Assembly (NCBI GenBank): GCA_037968875.1
Contig: JBBKWI010000139.1
Location: 884-64,883, forward strand
DNA from: Candidatus Sericytochromatia bacterium
Lineage (GTDB): Bacteria > Cyanobacteriota > Sericytochromatia > UBA7694
Reading direction: 5' to 3'
Length of the DNA stretch: 64,000 nucleotides
In this document: positions 9,384 through 64,000 of the stretch, one piece after another
How positions within the stretch are numbered: the stretch's first letter is position 1
Layout of the letters: each line of letters starts with the position of its first letter
The notes under the pieces: model-generated
The model's input: the letters and a program-made list of their open reading frames with translations, nothing else
The model's database searches: none
Told to the model about the DNA's origin: nothing
Translations under genes and position numbers: made by a program

Positions 9384-12095
<2,712 letters not shown>

Positions 12096-13046: not shown

Positions 13047-14741
13047 ATGAAAAGTAGCCTTCGCGTCCTGGCCAGCCTGGCCTTTATGAGTACTGTTATC
13101 GCCTGCCAACCCGCACCTCCGGTGGGCACCCCACCGGTGCCTTCAGCCTCGCCAACACCCGTGGTCACACCAACCCCGAGACCGACAGCACTCCCCACGC
13201 CAACTCCTGATCTCACCCCTACGCCAGTCCCGGGTCAGGAACGTCAGTTTGCAGCTATTTTGACGGGCAGCCAGGAAGTTCCTGCCGTCGGCGGCGCGGG
13301 TTATGGCACCTCACGCATCGTCTTAAATAAAGAAAGCAACACTGTTGAAATCTCCGTTGTGACCTCTGGTCTAAGCGGCCCGATCACCGGTGCTCATATT
13401 CATGCCGGCATCGCCGGTCAAAACGGCGACGTGGTCAAACCCCTCGCTATTCGTGGCAATGTTGTCACCGGCACCTGGCGTCTGAATGACACCGTCAGCC
13501 CGCTAACAGAAACCACCCTGGCCCAATTACTCAACGGCGAACTCTACGTCAATATCCACACCCAGGCCAATCCCGGGGGTGAAATCCGAGGTCAGGTTAC
13601 CGCGACTCAGGATGAGCTCTACCCCGTTTATCTGTCTGGCGATCAAGAAATTCCAGCGGTCGGCGGAGGTGCCATGGGTGCAGCCCTGGTGCGTATTGGC
13701 CCTGGCCAGAGCGAAGTCAAGATCGAAGGCTATGCCAATCAACTGACCTCAGAAATTATTGGCGCCCATATTCACAAAGGCGTTAAAGGTGCCAATGGTG
13801 CTGTAGTCAAGGCGTTAATTGTCGACAATAACAAGTTCTCAGTAACCTGGAAACGCAGCGATGCCACCAACCCACTGACTACAGAACTGCTGGCTGATTT
13901 GCGTGCAGGTAATTTGTATCTGAATGTACATACGCCCACCAATCCAGACGGAGAAGTGCGCGGTCAGGTGATGGCCTCTGCTCCATTGACCGTCAAAGCA
14001 GACAGTATGTTTGTGACTGAGCTCAGAGGCAGCAGCGAAGTCCCGGCGGTGAACAATGATGCTTATGGAGTCGCTGAACTCAAACTGAATGGCGATCGCG
14101 ACGAAGTTATGGTGGAAGTCACGACCTCTGGTCTGAGCGGCCCGATTACCGGCGCGCATATTCATAAAGGTCCGGCTAATGCCAATGGCGCAGTGGTCAA
14201 GCCTTTGACTATCAACGGCAATCGTTTGAGTGCCACTTGGAAAATGTCAGATAACCCCAACCCGCTGACCTTGACCCTCTTAAACGATCTCTTAACAGGG
14301 AATTTGTATCTCAATGCCCATACAGATGCCAATCCTGGCGGCGAAATTCGCGGTCAAATCATGAGTACCCAAAACAAAATCTACTCTGTGCTTTTAGAAG
14401 GTAATCAGGAAGTGCCTGCAGTCAATACCGACGCCAAAGGCTCAGCCTGGGTCATGATTTCACCAGATCACAGTCAGGTGACCGTTAAAGGTTACGCCCA
14501 TGGCTTAAGTGGCGTGATCACCGGCGCGCATATCCACGCTGGCCCACTGGGCTTAAGTGGCCCAGTCTTAAAACCACTGGTAGTCAATGGCAATGTCTAC
14601 GAGTTGACCTGGACCGCAACGGACGCCGTTGAACCTTTGACTGAAGAAAAAGTCAAAAAATTGATGAATGGCGAGTATTACATCAATGTACATACAGCAG
14701 CCAACCCCAATGGTGAGGTCCGCGCCCAAATCGTTGAATAA
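13047..14741 (+). CDS. Secreted lipoprotein with four tandem CHRD domains
   Basis: Signal peptide with lipobox (VIAC), Pro/Thr-rich linker, then four repeats of about 130 aa each carrying the CHRD signature (L.G.QEVPAV...GAHIH.G..G.NG.VVKPL...NLY.N.HT..NP.GE.RGQ). Confidence 0.8.
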   Translation: MKSSLRVLASLAFMSTVIACQPAPPVGTPPVPSASPTPVVTPTPRPTALPTPTPDLTPTPVPGQERQFAAILTGSQEVPAVGGAGYGTSRIVLNKESNTVEISVVTSGLSGPITGAHIHAGIAGQNGDVVKPLAIRGNVVTGTWRLNDTVSPLTETTLAQLLNGELYVNIHTQANPGGEIRGQVTATQDELYPVYLSGDQEIPAVGGGAMGAALVRIGPGQSEVKIEGYANQLTSEIIGAHIHKGVKGANGAVVKALIVDNNKFSVTWKRSDATNPLTTELLADLRAGNLYLNVHTPTNPDGEVRGQVMASAPLTVKADSMFVTELRGSSEVPAVNNDAYGVAELKLNGDRDEVMVEVTTSGLSGPITGAHIHKGPANANGAVVKPLTINGNRLSATWKMSDNPNPLTLTLLNDLLTGNLYLNAHTDANPGGEIRGQIMSTQNKIYSVLLEGNQEVPAVNTDAKGSAWVMISPDHSQVTVKGYAHGLSGVITGAHIHAGPLGLSGPVLKPLVVNGNVYELTWTATDAVEPLTEEKVKKLMNGEYYINVHTAANPNGEVRAQIVE

Positions 14742-23540: not shown

Positions 23541-25400
23541 ATGTCTGGACCTTTGCGTTCTTTTTTAATTGGTCTGGGTCTTAGCTTATTTGTATTTTTG
23601 ACCCTGGGCAGCTGGTACTGGTTGCAGTTTAGGCAGCCACCGACCGAAGATCTGGCGCGTTTGCGGGCCCAATTGCCGCAATGGGTTGAGCTGCTTGAAA
23701 AGCAAGACGATCAGGCCCTGGAAGCCAGCCTGGATCAAGTGCCGATGCAAATCGTGGTGGCTGACGCCGGACAGCAGGCCCTGACCAGTAATCTGGCGGA
23801 TGGGCATCGTTTGCGCCAGCAACGGGGCCAGGATGCACTTAAGAATGGCGTGCTGACGCGCTTTATTGAAAAGAACGCCTATCGTTTTTATTATCAGCCG
23901 CCGCTGAACTGGCTAGACCTCAATTTACTATTCCCACTGATTTTTGGACTTTTGTTGGGATTGGCTGCTGCCCTCTGGGATCTCTATCAAAACCTGCGCT
24001 TAGAAGACCAGACCGACACCTTAATTTTGCTCTCACGAGGAGAAGATTCCAAGCAAAAAACCCAGGCCAAAATCGAAGCCAAGAGCGAAGCCCGCCTGGA
24101 TGCCCTGCGTGATCAAAACAATCAACTCAAAGCCCAGTTACTGGAGCTCAAAACTCGCCCTGAGCCGACAGTACAAAAATCGGTGTCGCTGCCAACAGCT
24201 AATCCAGCCGCCGCTTCTGCAGTGCTGGCTGAAACAGACCCGGCACTGGTCAGGCGCTTAGAGCAAGAGCTCAAGCAAGTCAAGCAAGAGCTGAATGATA
24301 GCAAACTGAAATTACAAAGCGCTCAGAAAACCGCTAGCCTGCAAAATCAAGAAAACCAGCAATTAAAAAAGCAGGTCGATGACCAGGACGATGAGCTCAA
24401 TCGCCTGCACCAGCATCACCAGGAGCTCAATCAGGAGCTAGAGAAAGTTCGCGAACGCATGCAGGAAGTCGAACAACAAGCAGCGCAATTGCCTGAAGCC
24501 TGGCAAGAGATCGAAAGCCTACGCAAAGAGCAAGAGCGTCTCTTAGAGAAAGAAGGTCGCTGGCAAGACGAAAAACGTCGCTTGATGGGACTTTTTCATG
24601 AAAAAGTCGAGCTGCTGCAAAAAAATCAAGAGCGTCTCAAAAATGCCCGCCAGAAAATTAACGAGCTCTCAATGGCTTACAAAAAACAGCTCGAAAAAAT
24701 TCTCCATCTGCCCGAAGACCTACAGCATGCCCAGGAGTTACTCGAAAGCCTGATCGACCAAAAAGACCTGATCGAGCATGACAATCTGCGCCTGCATTTG
24801 GAGCAGGCCGATAAGCAATCTGAGATCAAGCGCTTGCAAATCGAACTGCAAGTGCGTGCCGATCGCTTAGAGCATGCCCGACGCCTGATCGAAGAACTCT
24901 CTGGCAGCTTGCGCAGCAACCAACGGGAGCTCTCGCTACTGAGCGAAACCTTAGAAGACAAATTGCTCGATCTTGATCGCATCCAGGATCTGCACGATGG
25001 AGACAGTCAGGTGCTCGAAGAAGTCTTGCAAGAGCGAGATCAACTGCGCTTAGAGCTCAGTGAGCAAGAAGAAGTCATTGCCCAATTGCAAAGCGACAAG
25101 AGCCAGTTGCAAGCCCAAAAAGAGGCCGCTGAAGGCCAATTGCAAGATGTCGACATGCAATCTTATCAGCTCGAAGTTGAGCAATTACGCCAGTCTCTCA
25201 AATTGATGGGCTTGCAACAGCAGCGCCGTACCCAGACCGTTGAGAATCTCAAAACCAAGCTCGAAGAGAGCGAAGTACTCTATGGCAAGCTCAAGCGCCA
25301 TGCCGAAAAACAAGAGCGCGAAATTCACAATTTACAGGAAGATATCGACCGCCACCGCTCTGAAATTGAAATTTTAGAGACCAAACTCTACGGCGGCTAA
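23541..25400 (+). CDS. Membrane-anchored long coiled-coil protein
   Basis: N-terminal TM helix followed by about 450 aa of heptad-rich Q/E/L/K sequence. Confidence 0.6.
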   Translation: MSGPLRSFLIGLGLSLFVFLTLGSWYWLQFRQPPTEDLARLRAQLPQWVELLEKQDDQALEASLDQVPMQIVVADAGQQALTSNLADGHRLRQQRGQDALKNGVLTRFIEKNAYRFYYQPPLNWLDLNLLFPLIFGLLLGLAAALWDLYQNLRLEDQTDTLILLSRGEDSKQKTQAKIEAKSEARLDALRDQNNQLKAQLLELKTRPEPTVQKSVSLPTANPAAASAVLAETDPALVRRLEQELKQVKQELNDSKLKLQSAQKTASLQNQENQQLKKQVDDQDDELNRLHQHHQELNQELEKVRERMQEVEQQAAQLPEAWQEIESLRKEQERLLEKEGRWQDEKRRLMGLFHEKVELLQKNQERLKNARQKINELSMAYKKQLEKILHLPEDLQHAQELLESLIDQKDLIEHDNLRLHLEQADKQSEIKRLQIELQVRADRLEHARRLIEELSGSLRSNQRELSLLSETLEDKLLDLDRIQDLHDGDSQVLEEVLQERDQLRLELSEQEEVIAQLQSDKSQLQAQKEAAEGQLQDVDMQSYQLEVEQLRQSLKLMGLQQQRRTQTVENLKTKLEESEVLYGKLKRHAEKQEREIHNLQEDIDRHRSEIEILETKLYGG

Positions 25401-29552: not shown

Positions 29553-30746
29553 CTAAGAAGGAATTCCCGAAGAGCTATCTTCTCCCAGGCTTTGGCGCTC
29601 ATCATCACTCATTTCCAGATCCGTCATCGATTTGCCCATACGCCCACGATGCGCTGCGACATCATCGTCATCAGGTGGCTTGACTTGGCCGCCTTTTTGC
29701 TTCATTAGGTAGGCGATGATTTTGGCGATCGCGATATAGAAATCGGGGTGGACATACTCGCCCAGTTCACAAGCCCCATAGAGCCCACGGGCCAAAGGCG
29801 GATCTTCAAAAATCGGGATATCATGTTCTTTAGCGATTTCCTTGATGTAAATCGCTAACTCATCTCGGCCTTTGGCAACCACTTTGGGAGCTTCCATGCC
29901 ATCTTCATAACGAATGCCGACGGCATAGTGAGTTGGGTTCGAAACAACGGCCGACGCATCGGGTACTTCCTGGCGCACCTGCCCCATACTCATCTGACGC
30001 ATTTTTTGCTTTTGCTTGCCTTTGATTAAAGGGTCACCCTCGGTTTGTTTGTACTCGTCTTTGACTTCCTGCTTGGACATGCGCATCGATTTTTCGAATT
30101 CCCAGCGCTGGTAAAAATAATCAATAAAGGCGACCAGCAACATGGCTGCAGCAGTTTTTTTGGCGATCGTGATAATCAGGCCGCCGGCAATTACAAGCGC
30201 ATTGGCGATCGGATTGGTCAAACTGAAAATAATATTGGGAAGTTGATCCTGGATCGAGGTATAGACCACCCAGCCCACAATACTGGTTTTAATCGATGAT
30301 TTGATCAGCTCAACAACCGATTTTAATGAAAAAACACGTTTCAAGCCTTTGATCGGGTGAATTCGCTCTAACTGCGGTTTCAAGGGTTTGCCGGAGATCA
30401 AAATACCGATCTGAAGCACTTCAACCAGCAGGGCCGTAATAAAGACCACCCCAAAAATCGGCAGGACCATCGCACCCAGGGTTTTGACGGAGTAAATGCC
30501 CAGACCATAAAGATCTACAATCGTAAAATCCTTAATAAACCAGGGCATATCGTAAAAGTTAAACTGAATAAACTTAAAGATCGTTTTGTAGATATGCGGC
30601 CCAAACCAGTTCAGGGCATAGGCAGACATCAGAATCAAAATCGCAGTATTGACTTCTTTGGACTTGAGAATCTGGCCCTTTTGTCGTGCTTCGGCGCGTC
30701 GCTTGGGGGTCGCGTCTTCAGTTTTCGAGTCTTTGTCTTCGCTCAA
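29553..30746 (-). CDS. flhB: FlhB/YscU-family export-gate protein (full length, NPTH autocleavage site)
   Basis: N-terminal EDATPKRRAEARQKGQILKSKEV, four TM helices, cytoplasmic domain with NPTHYAV, acidic C-terminal extension. Confidence 0.85.
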   Translation of the reverse strand: MSEDKDSKTEDATPKRRAEARQKGQILKSKEVNTAILILMSAYALNWFGPHIYKTIFKFIQFNFYDMPWFIKDFTIVDLYGLGIYSVKTLGAMVLPIFGVVFITALLVEVLQIGILISGKPLKPQLERIHPIKGLKRVFSLKSVVELIKSSIKTSIVGWVVYTSIQDQLPNIIFSLTNPIANALVIAGGLIITIAKKTAAAMLLVAFIDYFYQRWEFEKSMRMSKQEVKDEYKQTEGDPLIKGKQKQKMRQMSMGQVRQEVPDASAVVSNPTHYAVGIRYEDGMEAPKVVAKGRDELAIYIKEIAKEHDIPIFEDPPLARGLYGACELGEYVHPDFYIAIAKIIAYLMKQKGGQVKPPDDDDVAAHRGRMGKSMTDLEMSDDERQSLGEDSSSGIPS

Positions 30747-39403: not shown

Positions 39404-41170
39404 ATGGACCTACAAGATCAACAAGAGATACACAACGAACAAGTAGAAGATGAACTGTACCGTGCCTATTTAGACTGCTTATTTTTAGACCGCGAACAAA
39501 TCCAGGATATTCTGGCACAGACTCAGACCTATGAAAGCGCTTACCAGGCAGCCATTAATCTCTTAGAGCACATGAAGCTCGATCCCAACCTGGCTTCTCT
39601 GAATCTGCCAGACACTCAAACATTGACCCCCAAGCAATTGCCCCTGTACCTGGACTCTTTGCACCGTGCCCTCTGGCGCCTCTACAAGCGAGGCAAACAG
39701 GTCGACTTTTTGCAATCGATTCAACAAGAGCTCTCTTATTTATTACCCAAGCTCTGGCAAGCGCCTCAGGAACAAAACCAACAACTCAAAAAATTAAAGT
39801 CTCATCTATTAGAGAATGCCGAGCGTTTTGGTAATCGTTCTCTGGCAGCAACCTTAAATCTGCCAACAGAGACTGGCTTTTCCACTATCTTAAAAGCTGT
39901 TGATCAATCTCTGGCCAAAGCCTGGCCCAAACAATTGGGCCTGATCATAAGCCAGGATCAAGCCTTGATCCAACAGATTCTCGCCAATAGCAATGTCTCT
40001 GGTATTGACTGGCAAGTCTTTAGCAACGTCAGCGAAGCTCTGCAAGGAAAATTTTACCAGGATCCCAGCATGCTGATCATTACTTTAGACCAGCCGCGCT
40101 TTTCTTTGGATCGTTTACTCGATACCTTTTCATACTCTGAAGCAATCGCCGTCGTACACGATATGGCCAGCGTACAAGAAAAAATGCTACCTGGCCGCAT
40201 CAGCCATATCCTCGAAGAAAAATGGCTCTCGCGTTTTCTGAGCGGTCTGATTCAACGCAATCTGCTGCAACGCTGGCGTGATGCTCGCTTCCGTAAGCTG
40301 GATTTTTTAACAGGCTTGTCGTCTTTGATTGGCATCAGCGAAAAATACCAGCAATTGCAAGAACTCGTGGCCCGTTTAAAAGGTCCCATGTGTGTCGCCA
40401 TTTTGGATCTGCCGCTCTTGTCTGAGATCGAAAAGCAAGAAGGCCCTTACTTAACAGGCGAATGGCTCAAATCCTTTGGTCGATTTTTGGGCGGTAGCCT
40501 GCGTGGCTCTGATTGGGTCGGACACTGGTCACCAGATAAATTTATATTGCTCTTGCCCCAGACCAATATCCAGGGAGCCGTGATAGCCCTCGAGCGCACC
40601 CTCGACAAAATGAAACGTGAGCACCCCTTACCACTGGATGGCGACGATCCCCAGCGCGTCTTATTCCGAGCCGGCATTACCATGGCCGATAGCCAAATGA
40701 GCTTTGAGCAAGTCTTATTTGAAGGTTATCAACAACTCAAACAGGCGCGTAGCCAGCCAGCAAATCAGATCCTGGCCTATGACGCTAATGCCCTCGAAAC
40801 CGCCTTGCGACCGCATATTTTATTACTTGATGACGATACCATCATCCAGGAAATGCTGCGCTTTATCTTCTCGCGTGAAGGCTACGAAATCACCCAATTA
40901 ATGGACGGCTCTCAGGTACTCGAAACCCTGGAGAAAAAGCCCGTTTCACTGGTGGTGCTCGATCTCAAGATGCCCGGCATGGATGGCTTTGAGGTTTTAG
41001 AGAAAATTCGCTCTCAGCGTCAATATGACAATCTGCCAGTGGTAATACTGTCGTCAATGAAAGGCGAAAGCGATCTCGAACGCGGCTTTGAACTCGGTGC
41101 TGATGATTTTATTCACAAGCCTTTTTCACCGACTGAGTTGGTGATTCGCGCCAAGCGTTTTTTACGTTAG
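39404..41170 (+). CDS. Three-domain protein: unknown N-terminal domain, degenerate GGDEF domain with intact I-site, C-terminal receiver (REC) domain
   Basis: GGDEF fold recognisable (DFLTGL, RGSD-WVGH-WSPDKF in place of RxxD-xxxx-GG[DE]EF, AGITMA). REC with DDD pocket, phosphoacceptor D in VVLDLKMPG, SSMKG, HKPF. Confidence 0.8.
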   Translation: MDLQDQQEIHNEQVEDELYRAYLDCLFLDREQIQDILAQTQTYESAYQAAINLLEHMKLDPNLASLNLPDTQTLTPKQLPLYLDSLHRALWRLYKRGKQVDFLQSIQQELSYLLPKLWQAPQEQNQQLKKLKSHLLENAERFGNRSLAATLNLPTETGFSTILKAVDQSLAKAWPKQLGLIISQDQALIQQILANSNVSGIDWQVFSNVSEALQGKFYQDPSMLIITLDQPRFSLDRLLDTFSYSEAIAVVHDMASVQEKMLPGRISHILEEKWLSRFLSGLIQRNLLQRWRDARFRKLDFLTGLSSLIGISEKYQQLQELVARLKGPMCVAILDLPLLSEIEKQEGPYLTGEWLKSFGRFLGGSLRGSDWVGHWSPDKFILLLPQTNIQGAVIALERTLDKMKREHPLPLDGDDPQRVLFRAGITMADSQMSFEQVLFEGYQQLKQARSQPANQILAYDANALETALRPHILLLDDDTIIQEMLRFIFSREGYEITQLMDGSQVLETLEKKPVSLVVLDLKMPGMDGFEVLEKIRSQRQYDNLPVVILSSMKGESDLERGFELGADDFIHKPFSPTELVIRAKRFLR

Positions 41171-41182
41171 CTTTAGAGCCCG

Positions 41183-42601
41183 CTAGGTAGCTTTTTCAAA
41201 GCCCTGGCGGGTCATTTTGCCCCAGCTATGCTTACGTGAGAACAGGCGTTTGATCATGCCGCGCACGCGCCAAACCGTTAGCAATTGCCGGTAGCCAAAA
41301 CTTTCGAGAATGGCGGTTAGCATCAAAATCATTAAATCCTTAACATTTTGATAGCGGCGAAAGGTCAGCTCTTCTAAAGCCACCGCAAAGACCGAAATAA
41401 TGCTGCCATAAACAAAGGCTATCAAAAAGAAGGCCAGGGCAAAGCGAGGCGATAAGCCACCGGTCAGCAACAAACCAATCACAGCGATATAACCGACAAT
41501 CTCTAAGAGAGGACCTAACATTTCAAAGAAAAAGTAAAAAGGGAAAGCCAGCATGCCCACACGGCCATAACGCGGGTTAAACAACATGCGGCGGTGTTTG
41601 AGCAAAGCCTCCATCAACCCCCGCTGCCAGCGATCGCGCTGATTACCCAGAATCGCAGGACTTTCGGGGCACTCGGTCCAGGCGACGGGATCCGGGATAA
41701 AAGCAATATCATAGGGAATTTTTTGCTCGATCGCATGGCGGTGCAAGCGCACAATCAATTCCATATCTTCACCAACGGTTTTGCTATCATAGCCCCCGGC
41801 CTGTGCGACAAGATTTCGGCGAAAGAGGCCAAAGGCACCCGAAATAATAATCGTCCCCCCAAGCACACTCCATCCCATACGACCCGATAAAAAGGCCCGC
41901 AAATATTCCAGGACTTGAAAACGAGCCCAAATCGACTGAGGCAGACGGACTTCAACCACTTCACCCCGATTTACTTTACAGCCATTGGCGATACGCACAA
42001 TCCCACCAGCAGCAATCGTCTCACCGTTCTCCAGGAAGGGGCGTACCACGCGCAAAAGGGCGTCGCGCTCAAGTAAGCTATCGGCGTCAATTGCACAAAA
42101 AAGCGGCGTATGTGAAAAATTGATCCCCACATTCAAGGCATCTGCCTTGCCGCCATTCTCTTTATCGATCACCCATAAATTGGGGAAGCGTTCACTGCGA
42201 TAAACCCGTTTGATCGGCTGGGTAGGAATATCTGTGAGTGGCATACGTGAAATGGGCTCAAGTTGGTAAGCTTCTTTGAGGCGTTGCAAGGTAGCGTCTT
42301 TAGAACCATCGTTGATCACCAAAATTTCATAATCTGGATACTGCAGATTCAATAAAGCGCGAATCGAATCAATGCAGGTACTTTCCTCATTGAATGACGG
42401 CACCAGCAAAGAAATCGGCGGTGCACCGGCTGAATTGAGCAATTGCTCAATATTAATCGACTTTAAACGCCGTGAATAACGCCGCAAAGCACCAAATGAG
42501 ATCAAACTGGTCAGCAAATAAACCGAGTTAAGCACAAACAAGTAAACCAGGTTCAAAACATTCATAACAATCAAAAAAGTGGTTAACATAAACGCAGGCA
42601 A
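41183..42601 (-). CDS. Processive family-2 glycosyltransferase, PgaC/IcaA-like polysaccharide synthase
   Basis: Two N-terminal and three C-terminal TM helices; DDGSKD, DAD, GEDMELIVRL and Q-R-D-R-W (NQRDRWQRG) motifs of processive beta-glycan synthases. Confidence 0.85.
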   Translation of the reverse strand: MPAFMLTTFLIVMNVLNLVYLFVLNSVYLLTSLISFGALRRYSRRLKSINIEQLLNSAGAPPISLLVPSFNEESTCIDSIRALLNLQYPDYEILVINDGSKDATLQRLKEAYQLEPISRMPLTDIPTQPIKRVYRSERFPNLWVIDKENGGKADALNVGINFSHTPLFCAIDADSLLERDALLRVVRPFLENGETIAAGGIVRIANGCKVNRGEVVEVRLPQSIWARFQVLEYLRAFLSGRMGWSVLGGTIIISGAFGLFRRNLVAQAGGYDSKTVGEDMELIVRLHRHAIEQKIPYDIAFIPDPVAWTECPESPAILGNQRDRWQRGLMEALLKHRRMLFNPRYGRVGMLAFPFYFFFEMLGPLLEIVGYIAVIGLLLTGGLSPRFALAFFLIAFVYGSIISVFAVALEELTFRRYQNVKDLMILMLTAILESFGYRQLLTVWRVRGMIKRLFSRKHSWGKMTRQGFEKAT

Positions 42602-42730
42602 GCCTTTACAAACGATAAGATTAAAAGAAATAATCGCAAAATAGCAGCCCCTTAAGGCTGAAATTTTGATAGCATAGACTAGAGTATATCAGGCTCTGAA
42701 ACGAAAGAAACAAAACGGTACTCTTAATCA

Positions 42731-44326
42731 ATGTGGTTTGAAGAATTAATCCAGTGGCTTTGGAAAAACCCCCTCCTACTCGGACTGGCGGCCTATATTG
42801 CAGTCTTGCTTAGCGTGGCTTTGGCATTGTTTTTGATGACCCTCAGCCTACATCGGGCCAATGAGCGCAAGGCAAAGCAATGGCAAATGATGGAAGATCG
42901 CTGGCAGCCTCTGATGATGAAAGTACTCTCTGGTGAAAAATGGCCGGACTATATTCACAGTCAGATCAAATCCCATGAAGTTTTCTTTTTTATCGATTTT
43001 CTGATGCGCTATGCTGAAAAGCTGCAAGGTAACGCCCGCGAAATGGCGACACAACTGGCAGCGCCTTATCTTGGGCTCTTACTTAAGCGCATGAACAGAG
43101 GGGACGCCGAACAGCGAGCACGGGCCATTTTGACCCTGAGTATCCTGGCTCCTGAGCAGCACAATGAACGCCTGGCACATGCTCTGGAAGACGAATCCCC
43201 CCTGGTCGCGATGCTGGCTGCCCGATCACTTTCTGAAAATCAATCCCTGGAATATTTGAAACCCATTTTAGACAAAATGCCCCGCTTTCGTTCCTGGAGT
43301 CAAAACTTTTTGATTTCCATGCTCAAATCTCTGGCACAAGAGCAGCCGGAAGCCTTACGAGAGGCCCTGCTGGATCCCAGCCAACCCGATTGGGTTAAGA
43401 CGGTAATTTTAAAGGCCTTAACAGAGCTAAGTGATTGGCAAGCCCTGCCCCTGGCAACCCAATTTTTAGAAGAGAATGGTGATCGCGAATTACAGGCTGC
43501 TGCGCTGCAGTTTATTGCACGCATCGGCCACGCGGGCCTGGTTGACTTGGTGCGTAAAAAGATCAGCAACCCTGACTTTGTCATTCGTTTAAACGCCGTG
43601 AAAGCGCTCTCCAGCCTGGGTGATTTATCCGATGGCAAACAATTGATTGCGCTCTTAAAAGACGATAGCTCCCAATGGATCGCTTATCAGGCAGCCCAGG
43701 CCTTAAAGATCACCAAAAATTTAGAGCCCCTCTACGAAGTCGCCTCTAGCCAGCATCCCCGCAAAGAGCTTGCCAAAGAAGTTTTATATGACCTCGATAG
43801 CTGGGAAACAATTGAATTCTTGATCCGTTTGCCAGGCTTTGTTGAATTTGTCCCGCAATGGATCCGCTCAGTCAAACGGCGAGATGTGCGGGATGTCTGG
43901 AAACAAGTCCAAAACGCTTTGCTCTCACCTCAGGCCCATAATGATGTGAAGCAAAAAATTGCTTATGAATTAGACAACAAAGCACCCGAGTGGCTTTTTG
44001 GAGCGCTCTCAGATGCCTTTTTGGAGCACCGCAACGCCCCTCCAAAATATTTAAATCAGGCCCTGATCAATACCAATTCGGAACAGGCTGCGGAGCTTTT
44101 TATGACCTGGTTTTATGAAATCGATGCAGCCGATGCGCAGTACCATGTTTTCTGTTTGCTCGCCGAGCACCCGCGCTCTGAGTCTGCCGGCTTTTTTAAA
44201 CAGCTCCAAAAAAAGATCAAGGAGCAACCCGATCGTTTCGCTCAGCACAGCAAAGCCAATCAAAAAGACATTCAGGCCAAAACCGACCGAGCCATTCATC
44301 AAAGTTTATTAAATACGAGTACTTAA
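42731..44326 (+). CDS. Membrane-anchored HEAT-repeat (PBS-lyase-like) protein
   Basis: N-terminal TM helix; multiple HEAT/PBS repeats (ARAILTLSILAP...PLVAMLAARSL, RLNAVKALSSLGD...WIAYQAAQAL). Confidence 0.7.
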   Translation: MWFEELIQWLWKNPLLLGLAAYIAVLLSVALALFLMTLSLHRANERKAKQWQMMEDRWQPLMMKVLSGEKWPDYIHSQIKSHEVFFFIDFLMRYAEKLQGNAREMATQLAAPYLGLLLKRMNRGDAEQRARAILTLSILAPEQHNERLAHALEDESPLVAMLAARSLSENQSLEYLKPILDKMPRFRSWSQNFLISMLKSLAQEQPEALREALLDPSQPDWVKTVILKALTELSDWQALPLATQFLEENGDRELQAAALQFIARIGHAGLVDLVRKKISNPDFVIRLNAVKALSSLGDLSDGKQLIALLKDDSSQWIAYQAAQALKITKNLEPLYEVASSQHPRKELAKEVLYDLDSWETIEFLIRLPGFVEFVPQWIRSVKRRDVRDVWKQVQNALLSPQAHNDVKQKIAYELDNKAPEWLFGALSDAFLEHRNAPPKYLNQALINTNSEQAAELFMTWFYEIDAADAQYHVFCLLAEHPRSESAGFFKQLQKKIKEQPDRFAQHSKANQKDIQAKTDRAIHQSLLNTST

Positions 44327-44397
44327 GAGATTTGAGAAAAGCTTAACTCTCTGCTATCATAAAAAACCAACACATTAAAATATTCTAATTTGGTAAC

Positions 44398-45681
44398 ATG
44401 TTTAAACTTATTTTAGCTGCTTTAGCAGCGACACAGCTACAACAGGCCCAGGACGCTTTACAAAGCAAAGATTATACCAAAGCCACAGCGATTTATCAGA
44501 CGATCTTACAAGAAGATCAACAATCTTACGAGGCGCTCTATGGTCTGGCCCGCTCTCAGGCTTTTGCAGGTGACTATGCCACTGCTGTGGAAACCTATAC
44601 CCAGGTTTTGGCACTTTACCCCGATGACCCGGATGCCTTATTTGGTCGTGGTCAGGCTTATATCTGGCTCAAGCAAGATGATTTAGGCCAGACAGACTTA
44701 AGAAATGTTCTACTCAAGAATCCCGGCTACCAGGATGCCTGGCAGGGCCTCGCCAATCTATACCGTTGGCGGGAGCGCACAGATGACGCCATCGCCCTTT
44801 ACGAAGAATGGCTAATTGCTCACCCCGATCGTTCGGAGCCACTGGTCTCACGTGCCTATTGGTATTTTCAACAACGCCAGTTTAATTTGGCCCGAACAGA
44901 TCTGATTCAGGCCCGAGAACTCGGCGCCAATGCGGAGCAAGTCGATCCTTTACTGACACGCCTCAACCGCCAACCAGGGGCTCTACCCTGGGAAGTGCGC
45001 GCGATTTATGAGTTTCAGGCTTTTTCCGAAAACAATGTACCCTGGCATACAGGGACAGGAGCCGTGCAGTACACCTTTGATCGCGGCAGCGTCTCCTTAG
45101 AAGGACTGGCGACCCAGCGCTTTGGCAAAAACGATCAAGGGCTGGCAGTCGATAGCTTTTTAGATCTCTGGCCAGGGGCCTATGGTAACTTCCGTGTGCA
45201 AGGCGTGCTGGATGCCGAGGTCATGCCTCAATGGGATCTGTTAGGCGAAATTTATCAGAGCTTTTTAGATACCTGGGAAGTCTCGGGCGCGTATCGCTTA
45301 ATGAATTACCCCACGAACAATGTGCATATTATTCATGGCAGTGTCGGCAAATATATCGGAAATTGGTATCTCAGAGCCCAGCCGCAATTAATTTTATCTC
45401 CTGAGGGTCCCGGCGGAATTATGACTCTCTGGGGCCGGTACTACTATAATACAGTTGATGATTTTGTCGAGTTACGCACAGGCTTTGGTCGACGTATCGC
45501 GGTCATTGGCAGCGACGATGGCGGCGCCCAATTGCAGGGTCAAAGTAATATCTTTGGCGTCCTCACCGGGCAGTATTTTATCAACCCTCAATTGGGCTTC
45601 CTGGGAACTCTCAACTATAATCATGATGATTTGTTTCCCAATCGTTTTGGCTTCAGTCTAGGGACCAAATATCGCTTTTAA
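44398..45681 (+). CDS. Outer membrane protein: N-terminal TPR repeats plus C-terminal YaiO/PgaA-like beta-barrel
   Basis: Signal peptide; about 4 TPR units (AIYQTIL..., AVETYTQVLALYPDDPDALFGRGQAY..., AWQGLANLYR...); C-terminal amphipathic beta-strand region ending in FGFSLGTKYRF (terminal Phe). Confidence 0.75.
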   Translation: MFKLILAALAATQLQQAQDALQSKDYTKATAIYQTILQEDQQSYEALYGLARSQAFAGDYATAVETYTQVLALYPDDPDALFGRGQAYIWLKQDDLGQTDLRNVLLKNPGYQDAWQGLANLYRWRERTDDAIALYEEWLIAHPDRSEPLVSRAYWYFQQRQFNLARTDLIQARELGANAEQVDPLLTRLNRQPGALPWEVRAIYEFQAFSENNVPWHTGTGAVQYTFDRGSVSLEGLATQRFGKNDQGLAVDSFLDLWPGAYGNFRVQGVLDAEVMPQWDLLGEIYQSFLDTWEVSGAYRLMNYPTNNVHIIHGSVGKYIGNWYLRAQPQLILSPEGPGGIMTLWGRYYYNTVDDFVELRTGFGRRIAVIGSDDGGAQLQGQSNIFGVLTGQYFINPQLGFLGTLNYNHDDLFPNRFGFSLGTKYRF

Positions 45682-45760
45682 AGCAGCGCCAGGGCTTTAA
45701 AACTTTGGTAATAAACAAATAAATGCAGCGCCGCATTGCTATAATTAAAACCACAAATGA

Positions 45761-47083
45761 TTGGGATGGTTTTTTATGCGGCGTTTTTATTTTGCTTTGA
45801 CTTTTGTTTTACTTGCTTGCAATATGAATCCGAGCCCGACGACTACCCCGCAAACCTCTCCGTCACCAGGTTCCACTCCTGAGCCCATTGTAACCAGCCC
45901 GAGCTCCAATCCAGCTCCTGACCAAACCCCTCTGCCGCCCCAAATTGTGAACAATCTGCTGGCGAATCCCGGCGTCGAAAGCAGCGCCGATGGCATCAAT
46001 CCCTTGCACTGGCAGCATGACAGTTTTGGCTCCAACCAGACGCAATTTGCACTCAAAAGTGGAGATGCCTTTGAAGGTAAACATTACCTGTCGATCCAAA
46101 TGGCTTCTTATCAAAACGGTGATGCCAAGTGGGTCTTTGACCCCTTGCCTTTAAAAGAAGATGAATGGTACGAATACAGCACCGCTTATCGCGCAGATGG
46201 GCGCAATCGGCTGATTTGGTCTTGTACGCATTCTGATGGCTCCCGTCGTTTTCGCACCAATAGCCAAAGCCATGCTAATGCAAGCTGGGAAACAAAAAAA
46301 ATCAGATTTTATCTGCCACCAGCAAGTGACTGCAAGGTCTCTGTTTTGCATGTGATCGATCGAGCTGGCTATCTTGATACAGACGCCCATGCGCTCTATA
46401 AAGTCCAGGCCCGTCCATTGGCTCAGCCTTATGTGAGTATTAGCTTTGATGATATCTGGGCCACAGCAGCCACCGTTGGGGCTCCTGAGCTCGAAAAACG
46501 CGGCTGGAAGGGTAGCTTTTATGTTACTGGCGTCTATGCCCGTAACAGCGATACCGACTACGCCAAAGTCGATCAGATCAAAACCCTGATTGCCACCGGT
46601 CATGAGATTGGTTCTCACGCCGAAAACCATATCGCAATGTCTAAATTAGATATTACAGGCCTGGATGATCAATACCGTAATAACCAGGCCTACCTTAAGT
46701 TTTTAGGTGCTGAGCCCCTGGGCATTGCCTATCCCTTTGGTGATTTTGACGGTCAGGTCGAAATCGAAGGCCATCGCTTTCACAACTACGCGCGCACCAG
46801 CTTAGAGGGTTTAAACGATGCCGGCTTCGACCCTTTCCGTCTGCAAATTTTCCCGATCACCAATGAAACCACCGTCGCTGAAGTTAAGCAGTATATTGAT
46901 GATGCCAAGCGCACCTCAACCTGGCTGATCTTGCTCTATCATGATCTCAAAGAAAGCGGTGGCGATCCCAATTACACCACTTCAGTCAATGATTACCGAG
47001 AAGTTTTAGATTATTTGCAAAAACAAGAAATGACGGTCAAACCCGTCAAGGATGTTTTAAAAGCTCTCGGTAAACTCAACTAG
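45761..47083 (+). CDS. Polysaccharide deacetylase (CE4/NodB-homology) lipoprotein
   Basis: Lipobox LLACN, Pro-rich linker, N-terminal beta-rich domain, CE4 motifs ISFDDIW and GHEIGSHAENH. Confidence 0.75.
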   Translation: MGWFFMRRFYFALTFVLLACNMNPSPTTTPQTSPSPGSTPEPIVTSPSSNPAPDQTPLPPQIVNNLLANPGVESSADGINPLHWQHDSFGSNQTQFALKSGDAFEGKHYLSIQMASYQNGDAKWVFDPLPLKEDEWYEYSTAYRADGRNRLIWSCTHSDGSRRFRTNSQSHANASWETKKIRFYLPPASDCKVSVLHVIDRAGYLDTDAHALYKVQARPLAQPYVSISFDDIWATAATVGAPELEKRGWKGSFYVTGVYARNSDTDYAKVDQIKTLIATGHEIGSHAENHIAMSKLDITGLDDQYRNNQAYLKFLGAEPLGIAYPFGDFDGQVEIEGHRFHNYARTSLEGLNDAGFDPFRLQIFPITNETTVAEVKQYIDDAKRTSTWLILLYHDLKESGGDPNYTTSVNDYREVLDYLQKQEMTVKPVKDVLKALGKLN

Positions 47084-61466: not shown

Positions 61467-64000
61467 TTAGAGATCGCCTCTGAAGTTGGTATTGGTGCTA
61501 TCACCACTCGTGTTTTCGCCACCAATCACATAGACCCGTGAGGAAAGCGCCTCTACAGCTGCACCGCTGCGAGCTGAAGGCAAAGAGCGCAGGGTACGCC
61601 AGGTATTGGCTACCGGATCATACTCATAGACACCATCTGATTCATTGCCGTTTTGGTCTTCACCACCAGCAATAATAATTTTATTATTAATCAGCGTGGC
61701 TGTGATTTTACGCAATTTTTTAGGCATAGGAGTTAAGCTCGAAATCCACTTATCATCTTCAACATCATAGGCAGTGATGCGATCCTCAGCATCGTCTTCG
61801 CCGCCGCCGATCACATAAATTTTGCCATTGAAAACCGCAGAAGCGGCATCATAACGACGCGACGGTGAATTTTGTTTCAGTGTCCACTCATCGCTATCAG
61901 GATTATACTCTTCTACTATACGGCCATCTGAACCGGTCCCACCAATCAGGTAAATCTTACCGCGATAAGCTTCCGCAACAGCACCAATGTGGCTATTGCC
62001 TGAGTTTTTACGCTGGGTCCAGGCATTGCTATCGGGATCATAACGATCCAGGCGATTGGAATCACCACTGCCACCCATGGCATACAATAAATCATCCAGA
62101 ATCACGGTGGCCAGTCGACTACGCTCGGTGGGCAAACTGGCTTTAACACTCCAGGTATTATCGTTCACATCATAGACTTCCAAACGATCTGAGGAAGAGT
62201 TTTGGAAACCGCCCAGGACGTAAATTTTGCCGCTGATGCGCTCGGCTTTGGCACCGGCTCGAGAAGTCGGAGCGGCCAATTTTTCTGACCAATTGGGAAT
62301 ACTGGCACCGGCCAATTCAAACTCTCTGAAATTAGAGAGTTGGCCTTTAACACGTACCGAGACATTGACTTTACTGGTCAAGCTTGCAGGCACACGTACC
62401 TGCATACTCGAAGAGGTGATATTGATCGGATTGCTGGCCCGTTGTGAACCGAAAAAGACGGCGTTATGGGCCGGGTTATCCGTTGAAAAATGCTGCCCCG
62501 TAATGGTCACTAAATCCCCCTCATTGGCAGTATTAGGTATAACACTGTCCAATCTGGGGGAAATCACAAAAGGGATGCCGTTTCCCCGCTTTCCGTCAGC
62601 ACTGATATTAATAAAGCCCGTAAAAGCTCCCACAGGGACGGTGACCAGCATCGAAGTCGTCGTCGAAGAGACCACATTGGCTTTAATTCCATTAAACAGA
62701 ATTTCATTGCTGGTGGGATTCAAAGCAAAGTTTTCACCATTTAAGGTAATGGTTTGCCCTGGAATCAGTGGTGCGTTCGCCGGAGAAAAGCTAGCAATAA
62801 AAGGAACATTATCAGCGACAGTCATCGGAAAGGTCGAGGTTTGATTCGAAATCACATCCCGAACCGTGACCTGTGTGGTGCCTGGCTTATCCGCTCTAAA
62901 GACCACGGTGGGGGTGATGCCGTTAATACTGGTGTCCTGAGTTAAAAAAGACCCAATACTGGAATCACTCAAAGAAAAGTTGAAGGCAGTTCCAACAGTG
63001 TTATTGCCAGCATCTAGGGCCAAAATTTGCACAGGCTGGGTGCGACCGGTCAAAACCGTTGGGTTTTGAGGGGCCGCTTCAATCAAAAAAGTAGAGGATG
63101 ACTCAACAGTCAAGCTCACGCTGGTAGAGAAAGAACGAGCCCGTGCGGTAATATCCGCTCGCCCAGGTTGTAGGGGGTTTAAGATCCCGTTGGCATCGAC
63201 ACTAGCCACAAAGCTATTGCTAAGCTCCCAGGTCGGTGTCACAGTGACCGTATTGCCTTTTTCATCCGTGCCTTCAGCACGCAATTCAAAGCGCTGGCCC
63301 GTGCTTAAGGTCAAATCAGTATCAGGCACCAACCTCAAAGACTTTAAGTCGCCATCAGTCACAGTGATCGTAATCGATTTGGTCAAATTGCCAAAGCTAG
63401 CCTGATAAGTAAAGGTTCCTGCCGAACTGGGAGTGAAAACACTATCGGAACCCAAATTACCCTGCCCCGTGGTATTTTGTAACGTCCAGAGCACAGAGAG
63501 TTCTTTTTCTTGGTTTTGATCATTGACGCCAGCGACCCACAGTTTTAATGAGGTGTCTTTGGCAATCGTCAGGTTCTCACCTGGCTTAATCAATAAGCGT
63601 GTGGGCGAAAATGCAGTAGAAGGAACAGGAGTGGGGACCACTGTCGGTCCCGGAGTCGGTGTGGGGCCAGTGCTCGGGGTTGCTGAAGGCACCGGTTGAT
63701 TTTGTAGAATCGCCTCAATCGCAGGCAAGACTTCATCAATGGTTTGCAAAAGTTTGGGAGCTTCTGTCACATTCACAGTAATCGCATCAATCGGAGTCGC
63801 CAGAATCTCTTGTAAAATCGCCTGCACACGACTGCGGTAAATCGCAAGCAGGGCATTCACTTTCACACTATCGACAGGCGCATTGACGATCACTCCACGC
63901 CCCTGGGCAGCCGCACGGATATAAATTAAATCCAGAGCGGTGGATTCGATATCCAAATTTACGATCGTTTCGAGTTCTTTTTGAGACTCAGGGACATCAA
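61467..64000 (-). CDS. Large surface protein with Ig-like (Big_2/IPT-TIG) domains and C-terminal Kelch beta-propeller; partial, N-terminus beyond window end
   Basis: Frame stays open upstream of the in-window TTG at 63956 through position 64000. Pro/Thr linker, repeated Ig-like beta domains, six Kelch-type blades (GKIYVLGG..., LYAMGG..., GKIYLIGG..., GKIYVIGG..., NKIIIAGG..., SRVYVIGG...). Confidence 0.75.
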   Translation of the reverse strand, partial: DVPESQKELETIVNLDIESTALDLIYIRAAAQGRGVIVNAPVDSVKVNALLAIYRSRVQAILQEILATPIDAITVNVTEAPKLLQTIDEVLPAIEAILQNQPVPSATPSTGPTPTPGPTVVPTPVPSTAFSPTRLLIKPGENLTIAKDTSLKLWVAGVNDQNQEKELSVLWTLQNTTGQGNLGSDSVFTPSSAGTFTYQASFGNLTKSITITVTDGDLKSLRLVPDTDLTLSTGQRFELRAEGTDEKGNTVTVTPTWELSNSFVASVDANGILNPLQPGRADITARARSFSTSVSLTVESSSTFLIEAAPQNPTVLTGRTQPVQILALDAGNNTVGTAFNFSLSDSSIGSFLTQDTSINGITPTVVFRADKPGTTQVTVRDVISNQTSTFPMTVADNVPFIASFSPANAPLIPGQTITLNGENFALNPTSNEILFNGIKANVVSSTTTSMLVTVPVGAFTGFINISADGKRGNGIPFVISPRLDSVIPNTANEGDLVTITGQHFSTDNPAHNAVFFGSQRASNPINITSSSMQVRVPASLTSKVNVSVRVKGQLSNFREFELAGASIPNWSEKLAAPTSRAGAKAERISGKIYVLGGFQNSSSDRLEVYDVNDNTWSVKASLPTERSRLATVILDDLLYAMGGSGDSNRLDRYDPDSNAWTQRKNSGNSHIGAVAEAYRGKIYLIGGTGSDGRIVEEYNPDSDEWTLKQNSPSRRYDAASAVFNGKIYVIGGGEDDAEDRITAYDVEDDKWISSLTPMPKKLRKITATLINNKIIIAGGEDQNGNESDGVYEYDPVANTWRTLRSLPSARSGAAVEALSSRVYVIGGENTSGDSTNTNFRGDL

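Follow-up and report, generated by a model that had tools for sequence, protein, structure and literature searches.

A candidate synthase-dependent exopolysaccharide locus with a HEAT-repeat partner and a YaiO-type outer-membrane barrel in a Sericytochromatia genome

The question addressed here is what kind of machine is encoded by a compact locus in the genome of Candidatus Sericytochromatia bacterium (GCA_037968875.1), in which genes for a membrane-bound family 2 glycosyltransferase (GT2), a HEAT-repeat protein, an outer-membrane barrel with TPR repeats, a carbohydrate esterase family 4 (CE4) deacetylase, and a degenerate GGDEF protein with a receiver (REC) domain lie side by side. The window, that is, the whole stretch of DNA that was analysed, comprises 64,000 nucleotides (contig JBBKWI010000139.1, positions 884 to 64,883), and the locus occupies positions 39404-47083 of it. 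A previous interpretation made from the letters alone, hereafter the sequence-only reading, had taken the locus to be a system for an exopolysaccharide resembling poly-beta-1,6-N-acetylglucosamine (poly-beta-1,6-GlcNAc, PNAG) under the control of cyclic diguanosine monophosphate (c-di-GMP). Judged from its gene content, the locus is a genuine five-gene set for making and exporting a surface polysaccharide, and we consider it probable that it encodes a synthase-dependent exopolysaccharide machine of an uncharacterised type, working by the mechanism described below. The earlier view of a coherent exopolysaccharide locus of non-canonical composition was largely upheld, since a processive GT2 is joined by an exporter of the TPR/beta-barrel kind and by a regulator of the GGDEF type; the likeness to PNAG systems was not.

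Domain calls were made with Pfam and NCBIfam profile searches at their curated cutoffs, and all five of the domain assignments proposed earlier scored above them (Table 1).

Table 1. Coordinates, strands, and profile matches of the locus, in positions of the window.
Feature	Coordinates	Strand	Length and profile evidence
Regulator (degenerate GGDEF + REC)	39404..41170	+	588 aa; Pfam GGDEF 45.8 bits, Response_reg 99.7 bits
Membrane GT2 synthase	41183..42601	-	472 aa from TTG; Glyco_tranf_2_3 83.4, Glycos_transf_2 73.3, Glyco_trans_2_3 55.7 bits
Spacer separating the synthase gene from the divergent HEAT-YaiO-CE4 genes	42602..42730	.	Presumably holds both promoters
HEAT-repeat partner	42731..44326	+	531 aa; HEAT_2 70.5 bits
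TPR + YaiO outer-membrane exporter	44398..45681	+	427 aa; YaiO PF19413 89 bits (cutoff 23.9), TIGR04390 119.4 bits (cutoff 32; model positions 1-230 of 230), many TPR models
CE4 (NodB-type) deacetylase lipoprotein	45761..47083	+	440 aa; Polysacc_deac_1 PF01522 54.8 bits (cutoff 23.1)

The evidence that carries this interpretation comes from gene neighbourhoods. At least 526 confirmed relatives of the GT2 were collected from one-genome-per-species contigs using two family-specific peptide patterns. Open reading frames (ORFs) were called in 82 loci spanning at least six phyla and searched with the window proteins split by domain, and the neighbours were clustered all-against-all. The HEAT gene adjoins the GT2 gene in 78-79 of the 82 loci, and a REC-containing protein adjoins the HEAT gene in 76, in 61 of which a GGDEF domain was recognised by iterative search. 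A YaiO barrel gene follows the GT2 gene directly in 29 loci from at least five phyla, often with overlapping stop and start codons, and is carried by all Sericytochromatia with enough flanking sequence. Outside Sericytochromatia the genes run regulator, HEAT, GT2, YaiO on one strand; within Sericytochromatia the GT2 gene is inverted, as it is in the window. The recurrence of GGDEF/REC-HEAT-GT2(-YaiO) in 82 loci of several phyla is far beyond chance. The four-gene core of regulator, HEAT protein, GT2, and YaiO exporter is apparently an old, widespread, and undescribed variant of synthase-dependent secretion, as judged from this conservation. A full-text literature search, which had incomplete coverage and so gives absence of evidence only, returned no description of a HEAT/GT2/GGDEF/YaiO module, in agreement with the earlier remark that no description of the combination had been seen. 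The combination is not peculiar to this genome: it is one variant of a widespread module, and is the more interesting for it.

The GT2 has an N-terminal transmembrane (TM) helix, a GT-A domain, and hydrophobic helices over approximately residues 343-454. Its motifs DGS (98-100), DAD (172-174), GED (277-279), and QRDRW (321-325) are invariant in an alignment of 14 sequences from several phyla that contains 133 invariant columns, which bears out its earlier description as a processive GT2 with a QRDRW motif. The closest named relatives belong to Candidatus Sericytochromatia/Blackallbacteria (68-79% identity), and proteins 55-62% identical were found in Gemmatimonadota, Neomarinimicrobiota, Fidelibacterota, Omnitrophota, Rhodothermales, Nitrospirae, and Lentisphaeria. 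A PDB sequence search gave remote, BcsA-level matches only. An AlphaFold 2 (AF2) model was generated (pLDDT 78.7, pTM 0.77), and its best Foldseek matches in the PDB were the hyaluronan synthases (HAS) Cv-HAS and XlHAS1, with TM-scores of 0.60-0.68 (0.64-0.68 for Cv-HAS), followed by BcsA and the chitin synthase Chs1 at about 0.5; PcManGT and GtrB-like entries were also among the structural matches. Having the D, DxD, (T)ED, and QxxRW motifs of a membrane-embedded processive GT2 and a predicted fold that matches HAS, BcsA, and Chs, the protein is assigned on the model to the membrane-integrated, polymer-translocating class of synthases. Its C-terminus ends in an invariant W460-G-x-M-x-R465-x-x-F468. 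Hyaluronan synthase cannot do without its gating loop, WGT(S)GR (PMC11750622). The W460-G-x-M-x-R465 element of the tail resembles this HAS and chitin synthase (CHS) motif by analogy, and may have a similar role.

The HEAT protein consists of a single TM helix (15-40), a basic patch HRANERKAK (41-49), and a HEAT solenoid. This core of approximately 355 aa, with its TM helix, basic patch, and HEAT repeats, is kept across phyla to about residue 355, and is followed by a C-terminal extension of about 175 aa that is specific to Sericytochromatia and has no Pfam match. When 1.84 billion representatives were searched with a profile, 382 clusters matched at E<=1e-30, almost all of them 340-370 aa long and aligned end-to-end. 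The protein evolves much faster than its neighbour: in the nearest relative the GT2 is 94% identical and the HEAT protein 77%. Because a conserved basic patch follows the TM helix, the positive-inside rule predicts a cytoplasmic solenoid, and an N-out/C-in topology is likewise predicted from naturally occurring variants in which a signal peptide and an SH3_3 ectodomain precede that helix. Its conservation marks the HEAT protein as a true and apparently obligate partner of the GT2 and not a chance neighbour. Since it is a predicted membrane-tethered cytoplasmic solenoid encoded between regulator and synthase, it is best read as a coupling or scaffold subunit between the two.

The exporter has a short signal peptide, as do its orthologs, then 11 helices forming about five TPR repeats and a C-terminal 14-strand YaiO barrel (198-426). 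The AF2 model (pLDDT 91.2) reproduced the TPR domain and the 14 strands, and its nearest folds were Omp33, OmpG, CymA, and FadL, so that hidden Markov models (HMMs) and predicted structure agree on an outer-membrane beta-barrel coupled to periplasmic TPR repeats. The exporter had been called YaiO/PgaA-like, and the first half of that name is retained. The PgaA model TIGR03939 was matched through the TPR repeats only, at 29.9 bits against a cutoff of 366.65. The barrels of PgaA, BcsC, and AlgE have 16-18 strands, and that of PgaA has 16. BLASTP comparison with E. coli NfrA and YaiO gave nothing significant, the kinship with YaiO being shown by HMMs and fold only. TPR repeats accompany the YaiO barrel in Marinimicrobia, Fidelibacterota, Omnitrophota, and Sericytochromatia, and are missing from it in several Gemmatimonadota.

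The N-terminal part of the regulator, about 290 aa, is specific to Sericytochromatia and comprises a helical part and a probable pseudo-receiver; no Pfam match was obtained with the N-terminal 294 aa. Next comes a GGDEF domain in which SPDKF (376-380) stands in place of GGDEF and DFLTGLSS (300-307) in place of DxLTGLxNR. The RxxD of its I-site is present as RGSD (367-370), which precedes the former GGDEF site by five residues. The C-terminal REC domain is intact (D477/D478, phospho-acceptor D520, S550, and K572) and is the most conserved part of the protein. All eight Sericytochromatia orthologs share, without variation, the RxxD, the degenerate motif, and the active-site residues of the REC domain; the former catalytic motif takes the form (S/A/I/Q)P(D/N)(K/R)F in them. 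The best NCBIfam match was PleD (110 bits, cutoff 474). In other phyla the domain is found in other states: the Marinimicrobia and Fidelibacterota regulators have GGEEF with RxxD, as intact PleD-like cyclases, and most Gemmatimonadota regulators have GGAEF, GGSEF, GGGDF, or similar, with the I-site absent. PelD and PopA are degenerate-GGDEF receptors that bind c-di-GMP at the I-site. Because RxxD was retained after loss of the catalytic motif, as in PelD and PopA, the Sericytochromatia regulator can be read as an I-site receptor, and we suggest that it may receive c-di-GMP in this lineage only; c-di-GMP is not a universal input of the family, because most Gemmatimonadota regulators are without GGDEF and RxxD. 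The earlier description of a degenerate-GGDEF receptor accordingly stands for the motifs seen here, and has to be narrowed to a lineage-specific state, the regulators of other phyla being either intact at GGEEF or without both A-site and I-site.

The alternative that survives best concerns this protein. It could be an adaptor controlled by phosphorylation, with the receiver as its sole input and the degenerate GGDEF domain serving only for structure or for docking onto the HEAT-synthase complex. The invariant phospho-acceptor pocket within its most conserved domain would suit such an adaptor, as would the hybrid histidine kinase, Hpt, and single-REC genes that lie upstream on the same strand in many loci of other phyla, and the persistence of the gene beside HEAT-GT2 in those Gemmatimonadota where both GGDEF motif and RxxD are gone. 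The unchanged RxxD in all eight Sericytochromatia orthologs, despite decay of the catalytic motif and of the GTP-binding residues in DxLTGLxNR, argues against it, and the intact RxxD-bearing cyclases of Marinimicrobia and Fidelibacterota tie the module to c-di-GMP. We regard the adaptor as rather unlikely, though it deserves to be kept in mind.

For the CE4 protein the ATG at 45776 is the probable start, which yields MRRFYFALTFVLLAC and a predicted lipobox LLAC at 17-20. A Pro/Ser/Thr-rich linker is followed by a domain at approximately 60-215, which has no Pfam match, and by the CE4 domain at 220-333 or beyond. The motifs FDD (229-231), H286-x3-H290, and YPFG were found, the Asp-His-His set aligning with chitin-deacetylase motifs, and with the Pfam match they indicate a predicted deacetylase. 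The HfsH model scored 90.6 bits, far under its cutoff of 400, and weak matches to chitin and peptidoglycan deacetylases were obtained in the PDB. A CE4 gene of the window type after the YaiO gene was seen only in the nearest relatives, the loci L083 (GT2 94% identical) and L084 (83%); it is missing from L003 (79%), L004 (76%), and L087 (73%), and has no counterpart in the 82 surveyed loci. With the window CE4, the L084 CE4, the PgaB N-domain, YaiS, and a GH5 fragment as queries, phmmer and jackhmmer brought up only a CE4 of the L093 type (three loci) and one PIG-L protein in these loci. The L093 type is an unrelated 620-aa CE4-domain protein, encoded convergently after GT2 and YaiO in L019, L025, L042, and L093, a Gemmatimonadota-type subclade. 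By this distribution the window CE4 is a lineage-specific accessory and not part of the conserved system; the lipoprotein gene that had been described is present, and its membership of a coherent conserved set is what failed. Two observations on the downstream neighbours are recorded in passing. In L093 the 620-aa protein (10232-12094, minus strand) scores 26.9 bits against the cutoff of 23.1 and has a small GT2 alongside, and in L003 (271-2460, plus strand) and L004 (4819-7017, plus strand) a conserved lipoprotein of about 730 aa without Pfam match is encoded convergently to the YaiO gene.

The polymer itself has been the subject of the second alternative, that the locus makes genuine PNAG and is a divergent pgaABCD, with the GT2 as PgaC, the TPR-YaiO protein as PgaA, the CE4 protein as PgaB, and the HEAT protein as PgaD. 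PgaC/IcaA is indeed the characterised family that matches the GT2 best (E 2e-40), and E. coli PgaC is its nearest E. coli enzyme by BLASTP (27% identity over 320 aa, E 4e-29); a CE4 lipoprotein gene lies after the exporter gene, and a CE4 protein was recruited independently in a second lineage. Against this, the match to the PgaC/IcaA equivalog TIGR03937 reached 139 bits with a cutoff of 422.3 and was partial, covering the GT core only (model positions 97-296), and XrtG-associated, NodC, CelA, and chitin synthase models matched as well. The exporter fails the PgaA model and has a 14-strand barrel of the YaiO family. The CE4 protein shows no significant similarity to PgaB (best BLASTP E 0.16 against the E. 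coli protein), has no GH153-type domain, and is absent from almost the whole family; no ORF of the PgaD two-TM type exists in 39404-47083; and linkage type is not predictable from sequence. On these grounds the description as PNAG-like is not maintained, and genuine PNAG is considered improbable. Two independent CE4 recruitments, together with PgaC/IcaA being the best characterised-family match, hint at an acetylated sugar, probably an N-acetyl-hexosamine, and do not prove it.

A third possibility, that the GT2-HEAT product is not exported at all (being a glycolipid of the membrane, a periplasmic glucan, or a polymer of the cell envelope) and that YaiO and CE4 are mere neighbours, would explain why an adjacent barrel gene and a conserved hydrolase or lyase are so often wanting and could appeal to non-processive membrane GT2 enzymes with similar Pfam matches, such as the PcManGT and GtrB-like structural matches, yet it is very improbable given the YaiO gene directly after GT2 in 29 loci and in all adequately flanked Sericytochromatia, the full processive signature with QRDRW, GED, and a multi-helix C-terminal membrane domain, the polymer-translocating enzymes at the head of the structural matches, and the pairing of YaiO with a membrane GT2 in E. 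coli too.

Several points weigh against the preferred interpretation, a synthase-dependent exopolysaccharide machine. An adjacent barrel gene is absent in about two-thirds of the surveyed loci, mostly those of Gemmatimonadota, and no conserved glycoside hydrolase or lyase was found near the module in the 82 loci, only GT2, HEAT, and REC being widely kept. All homologues come from metagenome-assembled genomes, and the confidence of the GT2 model is moderate (see the pLDDT above). The lack of both GGDEF and RxxD in most Gemmatimonadota regulators also counts here, and what is said of the HEAT protein's role, of the GT2 tail as a gating loop, and of c-di-GMP binding at the I-site is inferred. A GH5 'Cellulase' fragment was observed after the TPR-YaiO gene at the contig end of one Omnitrophota locus (L092, 11087-11495, plus strand), and is the sole adjacent hydrolase candidate seen.

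Under the exopolysaccharide interpretation, the GT2 would polymerise a UDP-sugar, most likely an N-acetyl-hexosamine, and thread the chain through its own membrane channel, which the invariant C-terminal WGxMxR tail may gate in the manner of the WGTR loop of hyaluronan and chitin synthases. The HEAT protein would couple regulator and synthase on the cytoplasmic face. Its TM helix might complete the GT2 channel, as PgaD does for PgaC, because no TM helices follow the WG...R element in the GT2 family. In the periplasm, the TPR domain would take the chain and the YaiO barrel would release it. The ancestral form, as seen in other phyla, would have a hybrid kinase/Hpt/REC phosphorelay that drives an active REC-GGDEF-REC cyclase from the same operon. 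The Sericytochromatia lineage to which the window belongs would have lost the kinase genes, and its cyclase would be catalytically dead. Because this dead cyclase strictly keeps the RxxD I-site and the receiver, the window regulator most likely senses c-di-GMP and phosphorylation and switches the synthase on. The CE4 lipoprotein would be a recent addition that probably deacetylates the polymer in part in the periplasm. A broader claim is advanced tentatively, as a possibility somewhat short of probable: that these loci form a hitherto unrecognised, phylum-spanning class in which the co-synthase subunit, a membrane-anchored cytoplasmic HEAT solenoid, physically links a phosphorelay-driven GGDEF-REC protein, in some lineages a working cyclase and in others a dead I-site sensor, to a GT2 distant from PgaC, with a 14-strand YaiO exit pore and a polymer other than those of the Bcs, Pga, Pel, Alg, and Nfr systems.

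To our knowledge, few synthase-dependent exopolysaccharide systems are understood, namely those for cellulose, PNAG, Pel, and alginate and the Nfr system, and most ideas about biofilm matrices and control by c-di-GMP are modelled on them. The module described here occurs in several hundred or more species-level genomes, from lineages that are abundant and poorly studied, with GT2 proteins about 60% identical across phyla. If the interpretation is true, the YaiO outer-membrane family, E. coli YaiO included, would gain its first functional context, the HEAT-repeat protein would be a new type of synthase partner, and the lineages would provide a natural series for the evolution of local c-di-GMP modules, from active cyclase to I-site-only sensor or neither.

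The five ORFs lie where they had been placed, and the limits of the locus are right as first drawn, because the flanking genes, for an Rce1-like protease and NDH-2, are unrelated housekeeping genes and the GC content matches that of the rest of the window. A horizontal-transfer island was rejected on the same GC content and flanks. The regulator and synthase genes are convergent, with stop codons 12 bp apart. The gaps between the HEAT, YaiO, and CE4 genes are 71 and 79 bp, and a terminator scan found no terminator-like site in either, consistent with the earlier remark on short spacing without terminators. For the GT2, the database gene call (468 aa) begins at the ATG at 42589, four codons inside the TTG, and this is likely the true start. 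With this start the divergent spacer is about 141 bp, so that the divergence reported earlier holds and its length of 130 bp does not. One sigma-70-like match (42605-42634) and one hairpin (42645-42660) were located in 42602..42730, neither above shuffled expectation, and promoter and terminator scans of the window likewise gave no excess over that expectation. An Rfam search of the window returned no match, the c-di-GMP riboswitch included.

Elsewhere in the window, an ORF of 619 aa at 23541-25400 (plus strand) has no Pfam match; N-terminal membrane segments are followed by a predicted coiled coil of about 450 aa rich in Q, E, L, and K, and a strong local AT skew of 0.27 coincides with this ORF. 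The highest AT skew, 0.29, was recorded at 1-2000. A 564-aa protein encoded at 13047-14741 (plus strand) combines four CHRD domains, together scoring 378.7 bits, with a stretch resembling Cu/Zn-SOD that stays below threshold. An 829-aa protein encoded at 61467-63956 (minus strand) has TIG/IPT domains followed by a Kelch beta-propeller, an architecture better known from eukaryotes. An FlhB-family export-gate gene (400 bits) was found at 29553-30746 (minus strand), from which it is probable that this genome specifies a flagellum or else a type III export apparatus related to one.

Among the known systems, pgaABCD of E. coli shares several features with the locus: a membrane GT2 with D/DxD/ED/QxxRW motifs, which is the nearest characterised relative of the window GT2; a TPR and barrel outer-membrane protein; a deacetylase lipoprotein of the CE4 superfamily; a membrane partner of the synthase; and control linked to c-di-GMP, as proposed for the window locus. 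The two differ in several components: the GT2 falls far below the PgaC equivalog cutoff, the barrel is of the 14-strand YaiO type and fails the PgaA model, and the CE4 protein differs in architecture, lacks significant similarity to PgaB, and is not family-wide. PgaD is a small two-TM protein, whereas the partner here is a predicted cytoplasmic HEAT solenoid of 355-530 aa. In the Pga system c-di-GMP binds at the PgaC-PgaD interface; the window regulator, in contrast, is a separate GGDEF-REC protein.

The Pel system is similar in having a degenerate GGDEF domain that keeps RxxD (PelD, the c-di-GMP receptor), a TPR-barrel exporter (PelB), and a polymer deacetylase (PelA). However, PelF is a soluble GT4 enzyme, PelD is an inner-membrane GAF-GGDEF protein without REC, PelE and PelG have no counterpart in the window, and the HEAT protein has none in Pel. 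The NfrB-NfrA-YbcH system of E. coli, which makes the glycan receptor of phage N4, has a comparable, minimal synthase-dependent layout, with a GT2, a TPR outer-membrane exporter, and activation by c-di-GMP, the last being only proposed for the window locus. NfrB has its own C-terminal c-di-GMP-binding domain. It is 22% identical to the window GT2 (E 5e-5, marginal), NfrA is a 990-aa protein without significant similarity to the exporter, and no HEAT partner is present; an NfrB-type system was rejected on the marginal similarity and on the lack of an MshEN-like extension in the window GT2.

Hyaluronan synthase, chitin synthase, and BcsA gave the best structural matches and share a QxxRW motif on an interface helix and a W-G-x-x-x-R element, but they are only 14-18% identical to the GT2, whose WG...R lies at the extreme C-terminus with no later TM helices and which has no PilZ domain, and we know of no obligatory HEAT partner for any of them. 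PleD/WspR-type cyclases resemble the regulator in having REC and GGDEF in one polypeptide with an RxxD I-site, and differ in that the window protein has the order (pseudo-REC)-GGDEF-REC, with the active receiver C-terminal, and the degenerate SPDKF. Bcs, Pga, Pel, and Alg all have a hydrolase or lyase, of which the window module has none conserved. The HEAT co-subunit and the 14-strand YaiO pore are both without precedent in the known systems.

The uncharacterised yaiS-yaiP-yaiX-yaiO cluster of E. coli K-12 (NC_000913.3, 379500-387000) is similar in bringing together a YaiO barrel (PF19413), a deacetylase, and the membrane GT2 YaiP, which has 25% identity with the GT2 of the window (E 3e-10). 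It differs in that YaiO has no TPR repeats, YaiS is of the PIG-L type and not CE4, the acyltransferase YaiX is split by IS2, and there is no HEAT or GGDEF gene. In the literature searched, no function was found for yaiO, which was mentioned only as a PCR marker or in gene lists. The cluster has the look of a cryptic and decayed counterpart of the window locus, for synthesis and export of a polysaccharide. As predicted from its gene content, it is an independent link between YaiO barrels and glycan synthases.

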